From Candidatus Shapirobacteria bacterium (GTDB taxonomy: Bacteria > Patescibacteriota > Microgenomatia > UBA12405), in assembly GCA_030698565.1 (NCBI GenBank), contig JAUYJS010000008.1, forward strand, positions 15,098-79,097: a DNA stretch of 64,000 nt, in the 5' to 3' direction. Positions 1-9,038 of this stretch are shown piece after piece. The notes under the pieces were generated by a model. It saw nothing but the letters and a program-made list of their open reading frames with translations, was not told the DNA's origin and did no database searches. A program made the position numbers and the translations under genes. Position 1 is the first letter of the stretch. Each line of letters begins with the position of its first letter.

Positions 1-805
1 TAATCTAATCTTAATCTTGTCTTTAACTTTAAACAAAGCTTGCAGTTCACTAACTTTTTCCCAAGATACTTCAGAGATATGAACTAAACCCTCCAAGTTC
101 AAAAAAGTACCTTTTTGGTCATAGCTAACTTTAACAAAAATACCAAATGGCTCAACCCTAACTATTTCTGCATCAAAAATATCATCTATCTTTAAATTTT
201 CAATGGCACTAACTTCTTCGCCGACCCGACCTGGCTCAGACACCAATCTTTCAGAAAAGACCAATCTATTTTTAGCCTGATCAACTTCCAAAACTTTAAC
301 CTTAATTTTTTTACCAATTAATTTATCTGGATCACCATCATATTTAGATCCAATTTGAGATCCGGGAATAAAACCAAAAAAACCAAATGGAGCAATTACT
401 ACAGTACCACCTCGATTTAATTCTTTGGCAAATACAGCCACCTCGCCACCACTCTTTTCCTTTTCAGAAAAATAATTCCAACCATAACCTGAAGCCGCTC
501 CACGAATCGAAACCAAAATTTGTCCTTTATCATTTTCTGGAGATTTTACTTGAACTTCGATTTCATCGCCAACTTTTAAATCAGCCACATAATCTTTGAC
601 AAATTCAAATTCTTTACCAGCCACCATCGCATCGGTTTTACCACCAATGTCAATATAAATAGCTTTATTCTTTATCGCAATAATTTTACCCTTAACATCT
701 TGACCTTTTTTTAAACCCAAAAGGTCAACACTTTCGCTTTTAAGCAGATCTTCCATACTCAAAATCTCTTCTTTCTTCTTTATCTTTTTTTCTTTCTTAG
801 CCATA
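1..805 (-). CDS. rpsA: 30S ribosomal protein S1 (N-terminal part; gene runs off the window start)
   Basis: Reverse-strand translation from ATG (cat at 803-805) gives MAKKEKKIKKKEEILSMEDLLKSESVDLLGLKKGQDVKGKIIAIK... with at least three S1 RNA-binding repeats (KVGDEIEVQV, GKKIKVKVLEVD, FGIFVKV). It is absent from the ORF track because it is truncated by the window edge. Confidence 0.7.
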
Positions 806-852
806 TGCTTTAAAATTTATCCTTCCGAAGCTCTTATTAGAGCGAAGGAGGA

Positions 853-877
853 CAAAAAACCCCGATTTGATCGGGGG
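853..877 (-). terminator. Rho-independent terminator downstream of 5S rRNA
   Basis: On the minus strand: ccccgatcaaatcgggg followed by tttttt (plus strand aaaaaa at 854-859, stem at 860-876). Confidence 0.5.
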
Positions 878-950
878 TATAGAGGGATTGGGTACCCCAA
901 ACAAATTAATAAGTAAGTTAAATTTCAATTTATTGAATCATTTTTAGTTT

Positions 951-1076
951 CTCGGTTCTGGCCACGACCTATCTTCAAGATCCCTTGCGGAAAGACTATT
1001 GTCAGTGCTAAAACGTTTCACTTCTCTGTTCGGAATGGGAAGAGGTGGTTCCATCTCGCTCCAGTGACCAGAACTG
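951..1076 (-). rRNA. rrf: 5S ribosomal RNA
   Basis: The reverse complement contains the hallmark CCCATTCCGAACAGAGAAGTGAAAC motif. Helix I ends pair (ttctggtca / tggccagaa). Length is about 125 nt. Confidence 0.85.
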
Positions 1077-1209
1077 AAAAACTAAAACAAAGTAATTATA
1101 AACTAATTTCTTGGCCTCTAAATAGAGTTGCCTAATCTGGCTCCTAAACCACAATAGAATTGTAGTCTAAGAGCCATACTATATAAAAAAGATTTCTTCG
1201 ATCTTTCCA

Positions 1210-4180
<2,971 letters not shown>

Positions 4181-4359
4181 TAGTTTTGGCAACTCAATTC
4201 AGTTGCCAAGAAATTGAAAGTCTTATAATTACTTTTTTCGATTCAATAAATTGTTAATGTGCAGTATTCAGTTTAAGGAAATAAATTTCTTTATTTCCTT
4301 ATTTCTAAATATCTCTTAAATGGATTTATCCACCGAAGTTCTGCTTTGCAGAACGTAGG

Positions 4360-4433
4360 TGGACCCAAGGAGAGTCGAACTCCTGATCTCCTCGTTGCAA
4401 ACGAGGCGCTTTAACCAACTGAGCTATGGGCCC
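4360..4433 (-). tRNA. tRNA-Ala (anticodon TGC)
   Basis: Reverse complement is gggcccatagctcagttggttaaagcgcctcgtttgcaacgaggagatcaggagttcgactctccttgggtcca. It folds as a cloverleaf with a 7-bp acceptor stem, anticodon loop tt-TGC-aa and TTCGA T-loop. CCA is not encoded. Confidence 0.9.
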
Positions 4434-4660
4434 AGAGACCATCTTCTACTTTATTAAAAGTGCCAAAAAACAAAAAAACCTGCCAGTCCGGCAGGCTGGC
4501 CGAAAGCTCTTGCTTTCGGCTACTTCAAATCCTTTTAAAACAATTTAATCGGCCCAGTCTAAACCTAAATAAGTTGTTTTTTTGTTATATTTAATAGCTT
4601 TCAGCATTCGCAAGTGTTCATATTCTACAAGATACCCGAGCCTACGTCAATTAGATAAAA

Positions 4661-5302
4661 TCACCAGTTTTTACCCATTTTTGCTTTAGCAAATTCTAGT
4701 CCAATTGGAATTATTGAAATTGCAATAATAACAACTACTACATAATGAAAATTAGCCTTAACAATAGGAAAATTTCCAAAATAAAATCCTCCAAATACAA
4801 ACAGAGCTACCCACACTAAACCACCAATAAAATTAAACCAAATAAATCTCCAATAATTCATTTTACCAACTCCCGCTACAAATGGAGCAAAAGTCCTCAC
4901 TATTGGTACAAACCTAGCCAAAATAATTGCCTTACCCCCATGTTTTTCGTAAAAATTAGTTGCTTTATCCAAATATTCTTTTTTCAAGAATCTGCTATTC
5001 ATGCTAAAAGCCCGAGGACCAATAAAATGACCAATCCAATAATTTATTGTATCACCCAAAAAAGCCGCCAAAAACAACAATAAAAATAAAATATAAACAT
5101 TAAAAGAACCAATTGCCGCCAAAGCCCCAGCCGCGAACAAAAGTGAATCACCTGGTAAAAATGGGGTAATTACAAAACCGGTTTCCATAAAAACCACCCC
5201 AAACAAAATTGCATAACTAAGCATTCCGTAATTTTGAATTACCAAAACCAAATTTTTATCTATATGCAAAAACAAATCAACCAAGTATTTTAAAATTGTC
5301 AT
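4661..5302 (-). CDS. DedA/SNARE-associated family membrane protein
   Basis: 213-aa ORF with typical DedA motifs (FMETGFVITPFLPGDSLLFAAGALAA ... ARFVPIVRTFAPFVAGVGKM). Confidence 0.75.
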   Translation of the reverse strand: MTILKYLVDLFLHIDKNLVLVIQNYGMLSYAILFGVVFMETGFVITPFLPGDSLLFAAGALAAIGSFNVYILFLLLFLAAFLGDTINYWIGHFIGPRAFSMNSRFLKKEYLDKATNFYEKHGGKAIILARFVPIVRTFAPFVAGVGKMNYWRFIWFNFIGGLVWVALFVFGGFYFGNFPIVKANFHYVVVVIIAISIIPIGLEFAKAKMGKNW

Positions 5303-5441
5303 AAAGCATTTTAGTCCCTCTGGCTAATCTTTTCCAGACCAAATTTTACTGTCCGCCAAATATTGTTAGCGCTTCCAAACAAAATCAACACCACTGCTCC
5401 CATTAATCCTACAATTCTAAAGTAGTTCCATTTTTTCATAG

Positions 5442-5515
5442 TGGGCAATAGTAGACTCGAACTACTGACCCCCGTCTTATCAGGACGGTGCTCTAACCAA
5501 CTGAGCTAATTGCCC
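5442..5515 (-). tRNA. tRNA-Ile (anticodon GAT)
   Basis: Reverse complement is gggcaattagctcagttggttagagcaccgtcctgataagacgggggtcagtagttcgagtctactattgcccac. Anticodon loop is ct-GAT-aa with a TTCGAGT T-loop. Confidence 0.9.
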
Positions 5516-5644
5516 TAAATTATTTTTAAAGTGTGCTCTAATTTACCATGCCGAAGTTCTGCTTTACAGAACGAAGGCTGGCCAACTGACCTGCCCGCCA
5601 GACTGCGAAGCTGTCGGTGGGGCTAATTGCCCTTAATTTCAAAA

Positions 5645-6595
5645 TTAGTATATCACAGCTTTTTCCACTAAAATCTCCACAACTGCTTTAGCTGTATTTA
5701 TTTTAGTTGCTTTTTCAAAACCCTGAAATTGGCACTGTCTGTTTACTTCTAAAACATAGCTATTATCAAACTCATCTTTCATTATATCCACCCCACAATA
5801 ATCCAACCCACACACCTGTGCCACTTTTTCCGCCAATTCGCTATCTTCTTTGGAAATTTCCCAGCTTTCTACCTCTCCGCCCAAAGAAAAATTACTCCTA
5901 AATTCATCGCCAACTGCCGATCGTTTCATCGCTCCCAATGTTTTTCCACCCAGAACAATAACTCTCATATCCCATCTGGTCGACAAGCATTTCTGCCACA
6001 GATACATTCCCAAGCTCTTTTCATCAATTTTCTTAAGCACCGTTTTTAATTCTTTTTCGTTATTAATTTTTCGAACACTTTTTCCCTGAAACCCTCTTTC
6101 ATGTTTACAAATAATTGGATATTCCCAACCAAAAAAAGTATTTCTCCCATTTTCAAGGGGAGATGTCCGTAGGACAGAGGGGTTTAGAACTTGTTCTCTT
6201 GTATAAAAGATTTTGGTCGGTACCACCGAAATATCATTCACCACAAATACCCCATGTTGAGAAATTTTTCCCATTCTCGGCCAACTCAAATAACTCACTT
6301 CATTAGCACAAAAAATTTTATCTTTCAAAAGTTTTAGCAGTAAATTTCTACCTTCAATATATTTACCCGATTCAGTTCCAGCCACTCGGCACCACACCGC
6401 CAAAGTATTTTCTTCATTAATTTCTTTACCACATGCCAAAACTTTAGTTTTTCCATTTTCCACTTCAAAACTTAATTCTTTATACAACACTCGACTAACC
6501 TCCACTCCCAATTTTCCTGCCTCTTCTACTAATCTATTTACCTCATAGCTACTTTGCTGTGCTGACATGGTCAACACTAAAATTTTTTTATTCAT
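5645..6595 (-). CDS. RimK-family ATP-grasp amino-acid ligase (alpha-L-glutamate-ligase-like)
   Basis: 316 aa. The C-terminal half matches the RimK ATP-grasp core (RVIVLGGKTLGAMKRSAVGDEFRSNFSLGGEVE..VCGLDYCGVDIM...VLEVN). It contains one in-frame repeat-derived insert, LNPSVLRTSPLENGRNT. Confidence 0.7.
   Translation of the reverse strand: MNKKILVLTMSAQQSSYEVNRLVEEAGKLGVEVSRVLYKELSFEVENGKTKVLACGKEINEENTLAVWCRVAGTESGKYIEGRNLLLKLLKDKIFCANEVSYLSWPRMGKISQHGVFVVNDISVVPTKIFYTREQVLNPSVLRTSPLENGRNTFFGWEYPIICKHERGFQGKSVRKINNEKELKTVLKKIDEKSLGMYLWQKCLSTRWDMRVIVLGGKTLGAMKRSAVGDEFRSNFSLGGEVESWEISKEDSELAEKVAQVCGLDYCGVDIMKDEFDNSYVLEVNRQCQFQGFEKATKINTAKAVVEILVEKAVIY
6139..6188. repeat. Palindromic repeat copy A (diverged), in frame inside the CDS 5645-6595
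   Basis: tatttctcccattttcaaggggagatgtccgtaggacagaggggttta. Same architecture as copies B-D: a ctcccc/ggggag hairpin plus a gagggg tail. Confidence 0.8.
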
Positions 6596-6609
6596 ATGTT
6601 TATATGTAC

Positions 6610-6629
6610 GGGCGATTCATGAATCGCCC
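6610..6629. terminator. Intergenic GC palindrome gggcgattcatgaatcgccc (family copy 1)
   Basis: Perfect 9-bp arms (gggcgattc/gaatcgccc) with a 2-nt loop, lying between two minus-strand ATP-grasp genes. Confidence 0.5.
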
Positions 6630-6636
6630 CTACGAA

Positions 6637-7650
6637 TTATTTTTTCAATCCAACTAAAAATTTAACTATTTCCGCAGGTACATCAATTCCCGTTGCCTTC
6701 ATAAAACCTTTAAACTGAGGTCCTTTATTAACTTCCCAAATTACAGGTTTATTTATATCATAATTTCTAAAAGCCACATCGACTCCGGCCACCCACAACC
6801 CACACACCTCCGCCGCTTTAACCGCTAAATCTTCAATTTCTTTGGGTAATTTAGCTACTTCCACCCTTCCTCCCGCACTATAATTATTTAAAAAATGATT
6901 CTTAGGAGCCGAACGTTTAATCACCCCAAGTACCTTTTTTCCCAAAACCAACACCCGGTAGTCCCCATCATTTTCAATATATTCTTGCAACATATATCTT
7001 CGGCCTTCTTCTGTTTCTGACTTTCTCAAATCCATCACCAATTTTTCTAATTCAGCCAAATTATTAGCCTTAAAAACCCTCGTTCCCCTATCCCCACCAC
7101 TACCCTTGAGAATTACTGGAAAAGTAAAAAAATATTTCTCCCCTTTATCAAGGGGAGATGTCGCAGCAGCGACAGAGGGGTTTTTCTGTTCTGTCTCTTT
7201 CATAAATTCATACAAATACCACAAACTACCATAAACAGTTTTAGGCACATCAATTCCCGCTCGCTTCATCACCAACATTTGGTAAGCCTTACACGTATCC
7301 GAAGGCCTACCTTTCAAAACCAACGGATCCACCACAACTGGCGTTTTATATTTCTCCCCTTTATCAAGGGGAGATGTCGCAGCAGCGACAGAGGGGTTTT
7401 TCACCGAATCTAAAATCAAATTTACTTCTTCCCAGTGTTTTCCTGTTGTTCTAAAAAACAAAACATCATAATCTTTAATATTTTTTTTTCTTCTTAATTT
7501 TACTTCCCCAAAATCAGTATCAAAACAAACTTCATTATAAGACACCAAATCCAAAACCACCCCCAGTTTCTTCGCCGCTCTTTTTATCATCATCAAATGC
7601 TGACTAACTTTTCCTCCAAAAAATAGGGCAATTCTTGTTTTTTTATTCAT
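6637..7650 (-). CDS. RimK-family ATP-grasp ligase carrying two identical in-frame repeat insertions
   Basis: 337 aa. The RimK-like C-terminus is YRVLVLGKKVLGVIKRSAPKNHFLNNYSAGGRVE...GVDVAF...IWEVNKGPQFKGF. The peptide KNPSVAAATSPLDKGEKY occurs twice and is encoded by two identical ~54-nt DNA repeats. Confidence 0.7.
   Translation of the reverse strand: MNKKTRIALFFGGKVSQHLMMIKRAAKKLGVVLDLVSYNEVCFDTDFGEVKLRRKKNIKDYDVLFFRTTGKHWEEVNLILDSVKNPSVAAATSPLDKGEKYKTPVVVDPLVLKGRPSDTCKAYQMLVMKRAGIDVPKTVYGSLWYLYEFMKETEQKNPSVAAATSPLDKGEKYFFTFPVILKGSGGDRGTRVFKANNLAELEKLVMDLRKSETEEGRRYMLQEYIENDGDYRVLVLGKKVLGVIKRSAPKNHFLNNYSAGGRVEVAKLPKEIEDLAVKAAEVCGLWVAGVDVAFRNYDINKPVIWEVNKGPQFKGFMKATGIDVPAEIVKFLVGLKK
7133..7186. 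repeat. Palindromic repeat copy B, in frame inside the CDS 6637-7650
   Basis: tatttctcccctttatcaaggggagatgtcgcagcagcgacagaggggttttt, identical to copy C. Confidence 0.85.
7347..7402. repeat. Palindromic repeat copy C, in frame inside the CDS 6637-7650
   Basis: Identical to copy B. On the coding strand it encodes KNPSVAAATSPLDKGEKY. Confidence 0.85.
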
Positions 7651-7665
7651 ATTTTTATTTATAAT

Positions 7666-7716
7666 TATTTCTCCCCTTTTTAAGGGGAGATACGGCGAAT
7701 GCCGAGAGGGGTTTAG
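7666..7716. repeat. Palindromic repeat copy D, intergenic, overlapping the stop codon of 7713-9038
   Basis: attatttctccccttttttaaggggagatacggcgaatgccgagaggggtttagc. It may double as a terminator hairpin. Confidence 0.75.
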
Positions 7717-9038
7717 CTTTTTGCCGAAATTAAAAACCCTCCCAAATCTTTTCTACCCAATAAAAATTTGGTTCTCAATTTATGTCGATCAGCCACATTG
7801 ACTGCGGTCACAATTTTCCGACCGTTTAACCAAAAAGTCAAACCCACCACTGGCCGATCATTATTTTTACCTAAAGCTGATTTATAATGCCGATAATACA
7901 ATATTTTATTTTCATCCAAAAGACCTAGTTCTTGAGCTAAAACTCTATCTATTGAACTCCTATAAGCTCCGGTATCGATCTTAGCCGTCACCTCTTTGAA
8001 ATTTTTCTTGCCTTTTCCAGTTTTAATTTTAATATTTTCCAAAGGACCTACTAACTTAACCTTTTCTTTTTCCTCAACTTTATCAGAGAAACTTTCACCA
8101 AATAAATATTTAGCCAAAGTAATGGCGTGTTCTGTACTTCTAACTTCTATTTCTTCCAGTTTATCCATCCTCGCTTTTAACCCCGCCTTATTGCATATTT
8201 GAATCGATAAACCCGGCCTAGCATTAACTTCCAAAACCATTGGCCCTTTTTCTTTATCCAACACCACATCCACACCCAAAAACCCCAAACCCGGAATAGC
8301 CTTTTGACAATTTACTGCTGTTTCCAAAATCTCTTTCCAAAAAGGAATTTTTATACCATTAACTTTTCTCATTTTCTTTTTGCCATAATCATAAATTCGT
8401 CTTATCGGTTCTCCCTTACCTTCAATTCCAAAAGTGGTAATTCCCGAAGCCAGATCAATCCCCAAACCCACCGCCCCCTGTTGTAAATTCGCCTTACCAC
8501 CACTTTTTTCTGTTGGAATTCTAAACATGGCCATTACCGGCACTTTGTTGTAGACAATTACCCGAATATCCGGCGTCCCGACCTTAGTAATCGCCAAAAA
8601 CATCGGATGAATTCTAATTCTCTCTTCCACCAAAACCGGATCCGATGCTCCGTGCATACTATAACGACCTGCCAAAACATCTTGACAATGAAGTTTAATA
8701 TCTTGAGTAGTTATAATCTGGCCATTCATTTTCTGCCATTCACCAGCCCATTTGGCTCTGCGTCGAATAATTATAATTCCCTCACCACCGTATCCTGATT
8801 CCGGTTTGATCACAAAATTTCCTTCCAAATCTTCCCAGCGAAAGTTATCTAATTCTTCAATCGTCTTAAATCTTTTGATTAGCAAAGGCACACCAATATT
8901 TGCTTTGGCCAATATCTTCTTAGTTCTATATTTACTATCCGCTACCATCCGATCAGCCGTTGTATTTTTTCTCAAATAAACCTTATTCCTTTCGTTTTTA
9001 GTTAAAAACTGACGATAAGGTTTCAAAAAGGCAAACAT
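7713..9038 (-). CDS. ATP-grasp domain protein fused to a C-terminal retropepsin-like (Zn_protease / RimK-associated aspartic peptidase) domain
   Basis: 441 aa. The N-terminal ATP-grasp signature is FVIKPESGYGGEGIIII ... MVLEVNARPGLS. The C-terminal IDTGAYRSSID carries the D-T-G-A retropepsin catalytic motif. Confidence 0.6.
   Translation of the reverse strand: MFAFLKPYRQFLTKNERNKVYLRKNTTADRMVADSKYRTKKILAKANIGVPLLIKRFKTIEELDNFRWEDLEGNFVIKPESGYGGEGIIIIRRRAKWAGEWQKMNGQIITTQDIKLHCQDVLAGRYSMHGASDPVLVEERIRIHPMFLAITKVGTPDIRVIVYNKVPVMAMFRIPTEKSGGKANLQQGAVGLGIDLASGITTFGIEGKGEPIRRIYDYGKKKMRKVNGIKIPFWKEILETAVNCQKAIPGLGFLGVDVVLDKEKGPMVLEVNARPGLSIQICNKAGLKARMDKLEEIEVRSTEHAITLAKYLFGESFSDKVEEKEKVKLVGPLENIKIKTGKGKKNFKEVTAKIDTGAYRSSIDRVLAQELGLLDENKILYYRHYKSALGKNNDRPVVGLTFWLNGRKIVTAVNVADRHKLRTKFLLGRKDLGGFLISAKS

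Follow-up and report, generated by a model that had tools for sequence, protein, structure and literature searches.

An inherited 23S-5S rRNA locus without linked 16S in Candidatus Shapirobacteria, with DedA between its spacer tRNAs and probable REP-like hairpin modules in its spacers

How does a protein gene come to stand between the two spacer tRNA genes of a ribosomal RNA (rRNA) locus, and what are the repeats that lie around it? The question is raised by contig JAUYJS010000008.1 of a Candidatus Shapirobacteria bacterium, of which a stretch of 64 kb was analysed (the window; all feature positions given here are coordinates of the whole window, and all features of the locus lie on its minus strand). 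There, 23S and 5S rRNA genes occur without a linked 16S gene, tRNA-Ile and tRNA-Ala are parted by a DedA gene, and two copies of a hairpin-forming repeat, R1 and R2, are found between tRNA-Ala and 23S and upstream of tRNA-Ile, where a partial copy of tRNA-Ile is also located. A first-pass annotation, whose features are all present in the positions that it gave, had read this arrangement as the scar of an insertion or rearrangement within an ancestral 16S-Ile-Ala-23S-5S operon. Our analysis speaks, with moderate confidence, for a different answer: the locus would be a lineage-typical, 16S-unlinked 23S-5S locus of Candidatus Shapirobacteria that has been inherited as such, and whose spacers carry hairpin modules resembling repetitive extragenic palindromic (REP) elements.

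The age of the DedA placement can be judged from related genomes. The DedA protein of the window is 100% identical to MDP4009898.1 from a Candidatus Shapirobacteria metagenome-assembled genome (MAG), and DedA homologues at 69-72% identity, encoded in the same position, led to four further lineages with this layout. In the Shapirobacteria GW2011 genomes (loci L066-L069), the order is RimK, RimK, ORF174, tRNA-Ile, DedA, two open reading frames (ORFs), tRNA-Ala, 23S, 5S, ORF82 and S1. It reads tRNA-Ile, GH18, DedA, tRNA-Ala and 23S in L070, and tRNA-Ile, GH18, DedA, two ORFs, tRNA-Ala and 23S in L073/L074. L086/L087 have RimK, tRNA-Ile, DedA, tRNA-Ala, 23S, 5S and, at the position of S1, an ORF that runs off the contig. 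RimK as the upstream neighbour is common to the window, L066 and L086. Because this order recurs in five lineages (window included) whose 23S genes are only 74-84% identical in pairwise comparison, the placement of DedA between the tRNAs is old and fixed. It is a long-standing trait of the clade, and no recent insertion, that tRNA-Ile and tRNA-Ala are parted by protein genes, among which DedA never fails. Among 60 GTDB loci from other taxa with DedA homologues of at most 65% identity, not a single one is flanked by tRNA-Ile or tRNA-Ala, and two DedA homologues from CPR-like genomes (P0020 and P0033; CPR, candidate phyla radiation) stand in another context, between a DNA ligase and a P-type ATPase.

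The absence of a linked 16S gene, which the first-pass annotation had pointed out, was borne out over a much larger distance. Rfam gave zero small-subunit rRNA matches in the whole 64 kb, and two universal 16S motifs were not found in the same 64 kb even when 3 mismatches were allowed. The 16S gene is therefore at least 58 kb off on the upstream side of 23S, and the loci of the relatives contain no 16S in the 3.5-10 kb of upstream DNA that they provide. With 16S and 23S more than 1500 bp apart, the locus is unlinked in the sense of Brewer et al. The linkage between 23S and 5S is kept, with 5S starting 112 nt after 23S, and the unit has a conserved site resembling a promoter, along with a helix that flanks 23S. 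Unlinked rRNA genes in CPR bacteria, to which the annotation had alluded, have already been published (Brewer et al., 10.1101/705046; Lui et al. 2021, PMC8172020), and according to the latter survey they are found in 27 of 34 circularised CPR genomes, with tRNAs and protein genes noted in the spacers. The separation of 16S from 23S-5S is the same here as in the published loci. Unlike in those cases, however, both canonical spacer tRNAs stay with 23S and are parted by one to four protein genes, DedA always among them, in an order that is conserved across five deep lineages. No description of the tRNA-Ile/DedA/tRNA-Ala/23S layout was found in the literature searched. The rRNA locus of Borrelia burgdorferi, with the order 16S, tRNA-Ala, ORFs, tRNA-Ile and tandem 23S-5S, is similar in that protein-coding DNA lies between its spacer tRNAs and also between these and the rRNA genes, but there 16S is still nearby, the order and orientation of the tRNAs are different, and 23S-5S is duplicated.

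If the gene order is old, what are the repeats? The direct repeat of about 45 nt with its hairpin is real: a 23-nt core has exactly two occurrences (with 0 and 1 mismatch) as against 0 expected in shuffles, and R1 (4323-4367) and R2 (5541-5585), taken with their flanks, are identical at about 37 of 41 aligned positions over about 45 nt. Both take a common fold: 6-8 bp of outer stem lead into a 3x3 internal loop, in which UAC or UUC faces UUC, and then into an inner stem of 7 bp (GUUCUGC/GCAGAAC) that is capped by the loop AAA. The hairpin had been described as perfect in both repeats, which is correct for the stem of R1, but R2 has one G-U pair. The outer stem of R1 (GUCCACC/GGUGGAU) recruits the 3' end of tRNA-Ala, and that of R2 has, compared with R1, one more G-C pair and a bulged A; the folds are predicted at -21 kcal/mol (z -5.8) for R1 and -17.8 kcal/mol (z -3.5) for R2. 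Between the terminator of 5S and the start codon of S1 there is a third copy, R3 (856-815), which has the outer architecture and the loop of R1 and R2, but a different inner stem (GCUCU/AGAGC), with a fold of -12.7 kcal/mol. A covariance model of the module, built from 12 copies, matched only R2, R1 and R3 in the 64 kb (62.1, 56.1 and 49.6 bits, the last with E 1e-13). Across 16 aligned copies, 93.6% of the cells are paired, as compared with 87.2% in shuffles (0 of 500 reach the observed value) and 32-43% in slid controls, and the fold is supported because the stems show compensatory changes, at four pairs and in 13 cells. In Rfam 15, no family covers R1 or R2 at E values up to 10 once the tRNA itself and a weak match, antisense over tRNA-Ala, are set aside, and no description of the module was found in the literature on CPR palindromic repeats, CPR miniature inverted-repeat transposable elements (MITEs) and Shapirobacteria rRNA.

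Comparison with the relatives shows how the modules sit in the locus. Alignment with L066 shows R1 and R3 as clean insertions of 30 nt (4353-4324) and 37 nt (853-817), respectively, and a GC hairpin at 4499-4479 is a clean 20-nt indel relative to L073; there is no target duplication at any of these three junctions. The module is absent from L066, L073/L074 and L086, that is, from three of the five lineages, and it is thus not an ordinary spacer sequence common to all relatives, as it would have been on the alternative that the first-pass annotation had named. In L070 the module occurs twice, as a subtype of its own (CCTTCG-CTAAAG-CTTCGG): one copy is at the orthologous site of R2, the other inside the 23S 5' processing arm.

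The module is also not confined to rRNA loci. An identical 22-nt core is found on 11 JGI metagenome contigs (35-45% G+C) at unrelated intergenic sites. Three related contigs, L078, L080 and L084, have it at one and the same site, upstream of a gene for a small membrane protein; elsewhere it precedes a methyltransferase-like ORF and an ORF whose N-terminus looks HrcA-like. On L083 it abuts the 3' end of a tRNA-Ser in opposite orientation, and in a further context it is a few kb from a 16S. Weaker, diverged copies were detected on the same metagenome contigs with the covariance model, and the other genomes carry 1-3 copies of the module per 4-14-kb contig. Viral contigs yielded neither the module nor the interrupted D-arm pattern described below. 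As a separate observation, the near-identical contigs L079 (~7240-7285) and L075 (~2600-2620) differ by a 41-nt hairpin-containing insertion beside the module, which suggests strain-level turnover of such hairpins.

The partial tRNA that had been noted upstream of tRNA-Ile is a genuine duplication scar, but a local one, and its size had been understated. It spans nt 1-27 of tRNA-Ile at 5632-5533, in three pieces with two inserts, and is separated from the intact tRNA-Ile(GAT) gene (5441-5515) by an A/T-rich spacer of 17 nt (5516-5532). The first piece, the 11-mer GGGCAATTAGC (5632-5622), equals nt 1-11 and occurs at exactly two sites, here and at the 5' end of tRNA-Ile. A 32-nt insert (5621-5590) separates it from TCAGTTGG (5589-5582), which equals nt 12-19. 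The second insert consists of the 36 nt of R2 at 5581-5546 and TAAAT (5545-5541), and is followed by TAGAGCAC (5540-5533), which equals nt 20a-27, so that R2 is placed where the partial copy would have its D-loop. The upstream flank is also found in L066 (gtgatatactaatt..gaaattaa), where it joins the real tRNA-Ile directly; in L070, the same three tRNA-like pieces are found upstream of tRNA-Ile, with other inserts and that lineage's own module subtype. Within the 17-nt spacer, the distance from 'ACT' to GGG, the start of the tRNA, is 14 nt, equal to that in the upstream flank, and the L070 spacer still reads TGTTATACA; the spacer is probably a decayed copy of the interval between promoter and tRNA. 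The partial copy would then probably have arisen by a tandem duplication of about 50 bp, comprising the -10 element, the leader and tRNA-Ile nt 1-27, with two hairpin insertions afterwards.

A partial 5' copy combined with a hairpin is a recurrent pattern, because tRNA-Arg genes on an unrelated contig show analogues. On the minus strand of L083 (5050-5620), tRNA-Arg genes with GCG and CCG anticodons each have, on the upstream side, an incomplete copy of the gene's own 5' portion, with acceptor strand and D-arm. The module lies in the D-loop of one of these copies, and a GC hairpin of 46 nt follows the other. Another decayed tRNA copy was seen in L070 (6054-6140), where the intact tRNA-Ala is followed by a second tRNA-Ala-like sequence, which has the perfect palindrome GTCCGGTGTACACCGGAC in place of its anticodon arm and whose 3' end matches the allele of L066 and L073.

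Signals for expression and processing were compared across the same lineages. The nonamer TGATATACT (5655-5647), which overlaps the stop codon of RimK, recurs 5' of tRNA-Ile in L066 and L070, and the equivalent site is occupied by TGGTATAAT in L073 and by TGTTATAAT in L086. From its match to the consensus, it is likely the extended -10 promoter of the tRNA-Ile unit. A sigma-70-like promoter, TTGACG-17-TAGAAT, at 4650-4622, 3' of DedA, is conserved in all five lineages. It opens the promoter and leader region 5' of tRNA-Ala (4434-4650), which was delimited by a promoter and terminator scan and by comparison across the five lineages, and which has its orthologues at 11430-11673 in L066, 5740-5977 in L070, 8550-8792 in L073 and 2290-2510 in L086. 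The leader begins AACACUUG..AAUGCUGAA, or CACUU..AAUGCUGAAGCAA in RNA form; this start is conserved in five lineages and is accompanied in each of them by a CUGUUCGGAAACAG hairpin. A covarying hairpin with a U-run is likewise conserved in five lineages. In the window this hairpin lies at 4520-4499 and is followed by the additional inserted hairpin at 4499-4479, the U-run, and GGCACTTTTAATAAAG at 4464-4449, with an A/T-rich, GCACUUUUUAAAUAAG-like (boxA-like) motif that is conserved in five lineages. No Rfam family matched the tRNA-Ala leader. The terminator-like hairpin downstream of the tRNA-Ala promoter may be a small RNA gene, or may serve as an attenuator or as a boxB-like element.

The 5' flank of 23S (4176-4262) contains the 5' arm of a processing helix and the boxA-like motif GCACATTAACAATTTATTGAAT (4262-4241), which is conserved in L066, L070 and L073 and partly recognisable, as AACATTAACAATTAAC, in L086. 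The motif, a putative boxA, resembles the boxA of E. coli rrn operons, GCTCTTTAACAATTTATC, and is kept in most relatives. The two flanks of 23S pair in a long helix, with a cofold energy of -103 kcal/mol in the window and -94 kcal/mol in L066, and the 23S-5S spacer (1073-1195, with the inverted repeats I1, I13 and I17) forms its 3' arm. The idea that R1 and R2 take part in such processing stems did not hold, since the 23S helix is formed by the gene's own flanks and leaves R1 and R2 outside. Direct pairing of R1 or R2 with the flanks of 23S or 5S was also tried and rejected, as the duplexes were scattered and barely better than the self-folds.

Several other explanations of the locus have to be weighed against this background. 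Since rRNA regions in MAGs are often misassembled, the order could in principle stem from a chimeric join at a repeated tRNA or rRNA sequence. We give this almost no credence: two independent Logan assemblies from different runs are 100% identical over RimK, R2, tRNA-Ile, DedA, tRNA-Ala, R1 and the start of 23S, and this agreement, base for base, excludes the misassembly against which the first-pass annotation had cautioned; moreover, the gene order recurs in four other lineages from NCBI, ENA and JGI. It is also very improbable that R1 and R2 are att-like or target-site duplications, left when a tRNA-Ile/DedA/tRNA-Ala cassette was inserted into an ancestral 16S-23S spacer. The segment is indeed bracketed by direct repeats, and the partial tRNA copy adjoins R2. 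However, all five lineages have protein genes between these tRNAs, in a deeply conserved order, and three of them lack the repeat, which therefore cannot be regarded as the boundary of an inserted DedA, as had been proposed. Nor does a scar of insertion or rearrangement agree with the findings that each repeat is a self-contained hairpin, that R1 and R3 are simple hairpin indels, that the third copy, R3, lies outside the segment, and that the same module is found in unrelated contexts in other genomes. A partial tRNA copy beside an intact gene does recall the tRNA duplications at integrase sites, but those typically concern the 3' end, whereas the 5' part (nt 1-27) is copied here, on the upstream side and at an interval of 17-20 nt plus hairpins, and neither an integrase among the annotated neighbouring genes nor a repeat of the tRNA 3' part was found. 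Alternatively, the R hairpins might play the boxB-like part in antitermination modules of the nut type (boxB-boxA) within the rRNA leader and spacer. E. coli rrn operons have boxB-boxA modules in both places, the boxA-like motif at 4262-4241 is downstream of R1, and A/T-rich boxA-like strings follow R2 and precede tRNA-Ala. Against this speaks that boxA-like motifs are present in all lineages and the R hairpins are not (they are absent in L066, L073 and L086), so that, in contrast to E. coli, the hairpins are no conserved partner of the boxA-like motif. In addition, R3 is placed after the terminator, the module also occurs upstream of ordinary protein genes, and the string after R2 is explained as a tRNA D-arm followed by a decayed promoter copy. 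On the latter ground, and because the boxA-like motifs of the relatives occur without R, the combination of R2 and its A/T string was rejected as a leader module, and we regard the nut-type explanation as a whole as improbable.

A function of the modules as RNA signals is harder to dismiss, although we hold it to be only a tentative possibility. The hairpins would be sites for nucleases or RNA-binding proteins, or 5'/3' stabilisers, at places where precursors are cut or protected: in the leader of tRNA-Ile, in the spacer from tRNA-Ala to 23S, and in the 5' untranslated region of S1. Several findings that favour such a function weigh at the same time against modules that merely spread. The rRNA locus contains each of the three copies in the 64 kb, always on the RNA-sense strand, and the other 58 kb contain none; such clustering agrees with an operon-linked function no less well than with random spread. 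The internal loop and its closing pairs (CC-UUC-G / C-UUC-GG) are kept across distant genomes while the stems covary, a pattern suggestive of a protein that recognises them. Three related contigs, L078, L080 and L084, keep the module at one site, about 8 of 10 independent contexts are sense relative to the neighbouring genes, and R1 pairs with the 3' end of tRNA-Ala. Spread as a mobile repeat is further weakened in that the modules show neither target-site duplications nor terminal inverted repeats, that no transposase was found, and that only a handful of copies per locus is known, so that the word 'dispersed' rests on small numbers. Other points count against the account of the locus given above: between the window and L070, the tRNA-like pieces are near-identical but their intervening inserts cannot be aligned, and a neutral relic should have decayed; a terminator-like hairpin sits downstream of the second promoter; and the promoter assignments are consensus matches only. 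A functional signal, on the other hand, does not agree well with the fact that the module is dispensable, being missing at the orthologous sites in 3 of 5 lineages with the same operon. The other contexts are unrelated mRNAs, two are antisense, one of them abutting the tRNA-Ser 3' end, and both U-G and A-C departures from pairing occur, so that the pairing carries no strand signal; a cognate protein was not identified. Somewhat less probable still, in our estimate, is that the module is an undescribed CPR element specifically tied to tRNA-like sequence, either a small mobile element that targets tRNAs or a signal for the processing of pre-tRNA or rRNA. Modules do lie in the D-loop of partial copies (window, L070 and L083) and at tRNA 3' ends (R1 and the tRNA-Ser of L083), and the combination of a partial 5' copy, a hairpin and the intact cognate tRNA could be the footprint of the module or a selected leader structure.

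We thus return to the reading that we prefer, an inherited locus with REP-like modules in its spacers. The extended -10 element at 5655-5647 would drive the leader, tRNA-Ile, a 42-aa ORF and DedA. The second promoter and its leader (4650-4434) would precede tRNA-Ala, the boxA-like motif and 23S with its own processing helix, after which 5S, the terminator and the S1 gene would come. R1 and R2 are no ends of an inserted cassette; with R3, they would be copies of a short palindromic module in which a UUC/UUC internal loop joins an inner stem-loop to an outer stem with a bulged A, and which is often followed by (A)UAAAU. This module would spread within and between CPR-like genomes and be tolerated in transcribed non-coding spacers; it would be selfish or neutral, and any effect would be exerted as an RNA hairpin.

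The likeness to the REP elements and bacterial interspersed mosaic elements of enterobacteria and pseudomonads lies in imperfect palindromes of about 35 nt with a bulge in transcribed intergenic DNA, which vary in presence between relatives and can be clustered or nested and act as RNA hairpins. As expected of REP elements, the module forms a stable imperfect-palindrome hairpin with covariation. It differs from them in that there is no GTAG-type 5' tetranucleotide at its ends, that no RAYT transposase (REP-associated tyrosine transposase) was identified here, no genome-wide RAYT search having been made, that the known copy number is low (three in 64 kb, at one locus), and that conservation concerns the internal loop and not the sequence of the stem. 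The module does not look like a MITE, as target duplications are lacking at the indel junctions and the whole unit is a single hairpin. Rickettsia palindromic elements are comparable as small palindromes of a reduced genome that are found in non-coding RNA regions and in frame in proteins, but they measure 100-150 bp, as compared with 20-55 nt for the elements here, and are unrelated in sequence.

In-frame behaviour was seen in the window for a second palindromic family, with the core TCTCCCCTTnnnnAAGGGGAGA, which is found at 6131-6167, 7132-7186, 7348-7402 and 7658-7694. Two 55-nt copies, 100% identical, are in frame in one RimK-like coding sequence, where they give rise to the duplicated peptide NPSVAAATSPLDKGEKY, and a related copy is inside the neighbouring RimK-like coding sequence. 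These inserts are absent from, or replaced in, the RimK orthologues of L066, which are 70% identical. By analogy, the behaviour of this family resembles that of the Rickettsia elements. A diverged copy of the R module (21 bits) on the minus strand of L083 (2187-2221) is within a 244-aa ORF on the same strand and may be another in-frame insertion.

From upstream to downstream, the genes of the locus begin with a RimK-like ATP-grasp gene (5645-6595; Pfam RimK, 99.6 bits) and tRNA-Ile, which was identified by ARAGORN. In Rfam, tRNA-Ile is absent from the whole-window list at the gathering threshold, yet scores 70.3 bits when the region is scanned alone, a difference that is due to filter settings and not to a defective tRNA. 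A small conserved ORF of 42 aa, MKKWNYFRIVGLMGAVVLILFGSANNIWRTVKFGLEKISQRD (5439-5311), begins 2 nt past tRNA-Ile and has one predicted hydrophobic helix; homologues of 41-43 aa are found 3' of tRNA-Ile in L066 and L070. Processing of the tRNA-Ile 3' end would make the mRNA of this ORF almost leaderless. DedA itself (4661-5302) is a VTT-domain membrane protein of 213 aa (Pfam PF09335, 89 bits), and is followed by tRNA-Ala(TGC) (4358-4433; ARAGORN; Rfam, 66.9 bits), a full-length 23S gene (1185-4175; RF02541, 2306 bits, model positions 1-2925) and 5S (956-1072; RF00001, 66.4 bits). The terminator scan placed an intrinsic terminator hairpin with a T-run (876-860) 3' of 5S, of which an orthologue exists in L066. 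The S1-domain (rpsA-like) gene, of which the 5' part (1-804) is in the window, starts with ATG at 804-802, continues past the window start and matches Pfam S1 over three stretches (E 4.6e-26).

Upstream of these genes, a 7TM-transglutaminase-like gene, ATPgrasp_ST and two RimK-like genes form a conserved cluster (5645-9038 in the window and 4973-9172 in L066), in which three ATP-grasp genes were confirmed in the window. In L066, the cluster directly adjoins the tRNA-Ile unit on its upstream side, and the last RimK gene of the window has its stop codon within the putative -10 element.

The finding of 23S-5S without 16S adds little by itself, as it is known for CPR bacteria; the variants worth recording are the conserved order and the hairpin module. 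The order tRNA-Ile/DedA/tRNA-Ala/23S is a stable synteny marker for the clade, and the locus illustrates how an rRNA operon can fragment while it keeps its own promoter, a boxA-like motif and a processing helix. The module is a sequence-conserved two-part hairpin that is common to different CPR-like genomes. If they are general, this module and the partial 5' tRNA copies would bear on how repeats spread, and on how stable RNAs are processed, in very small genomes.

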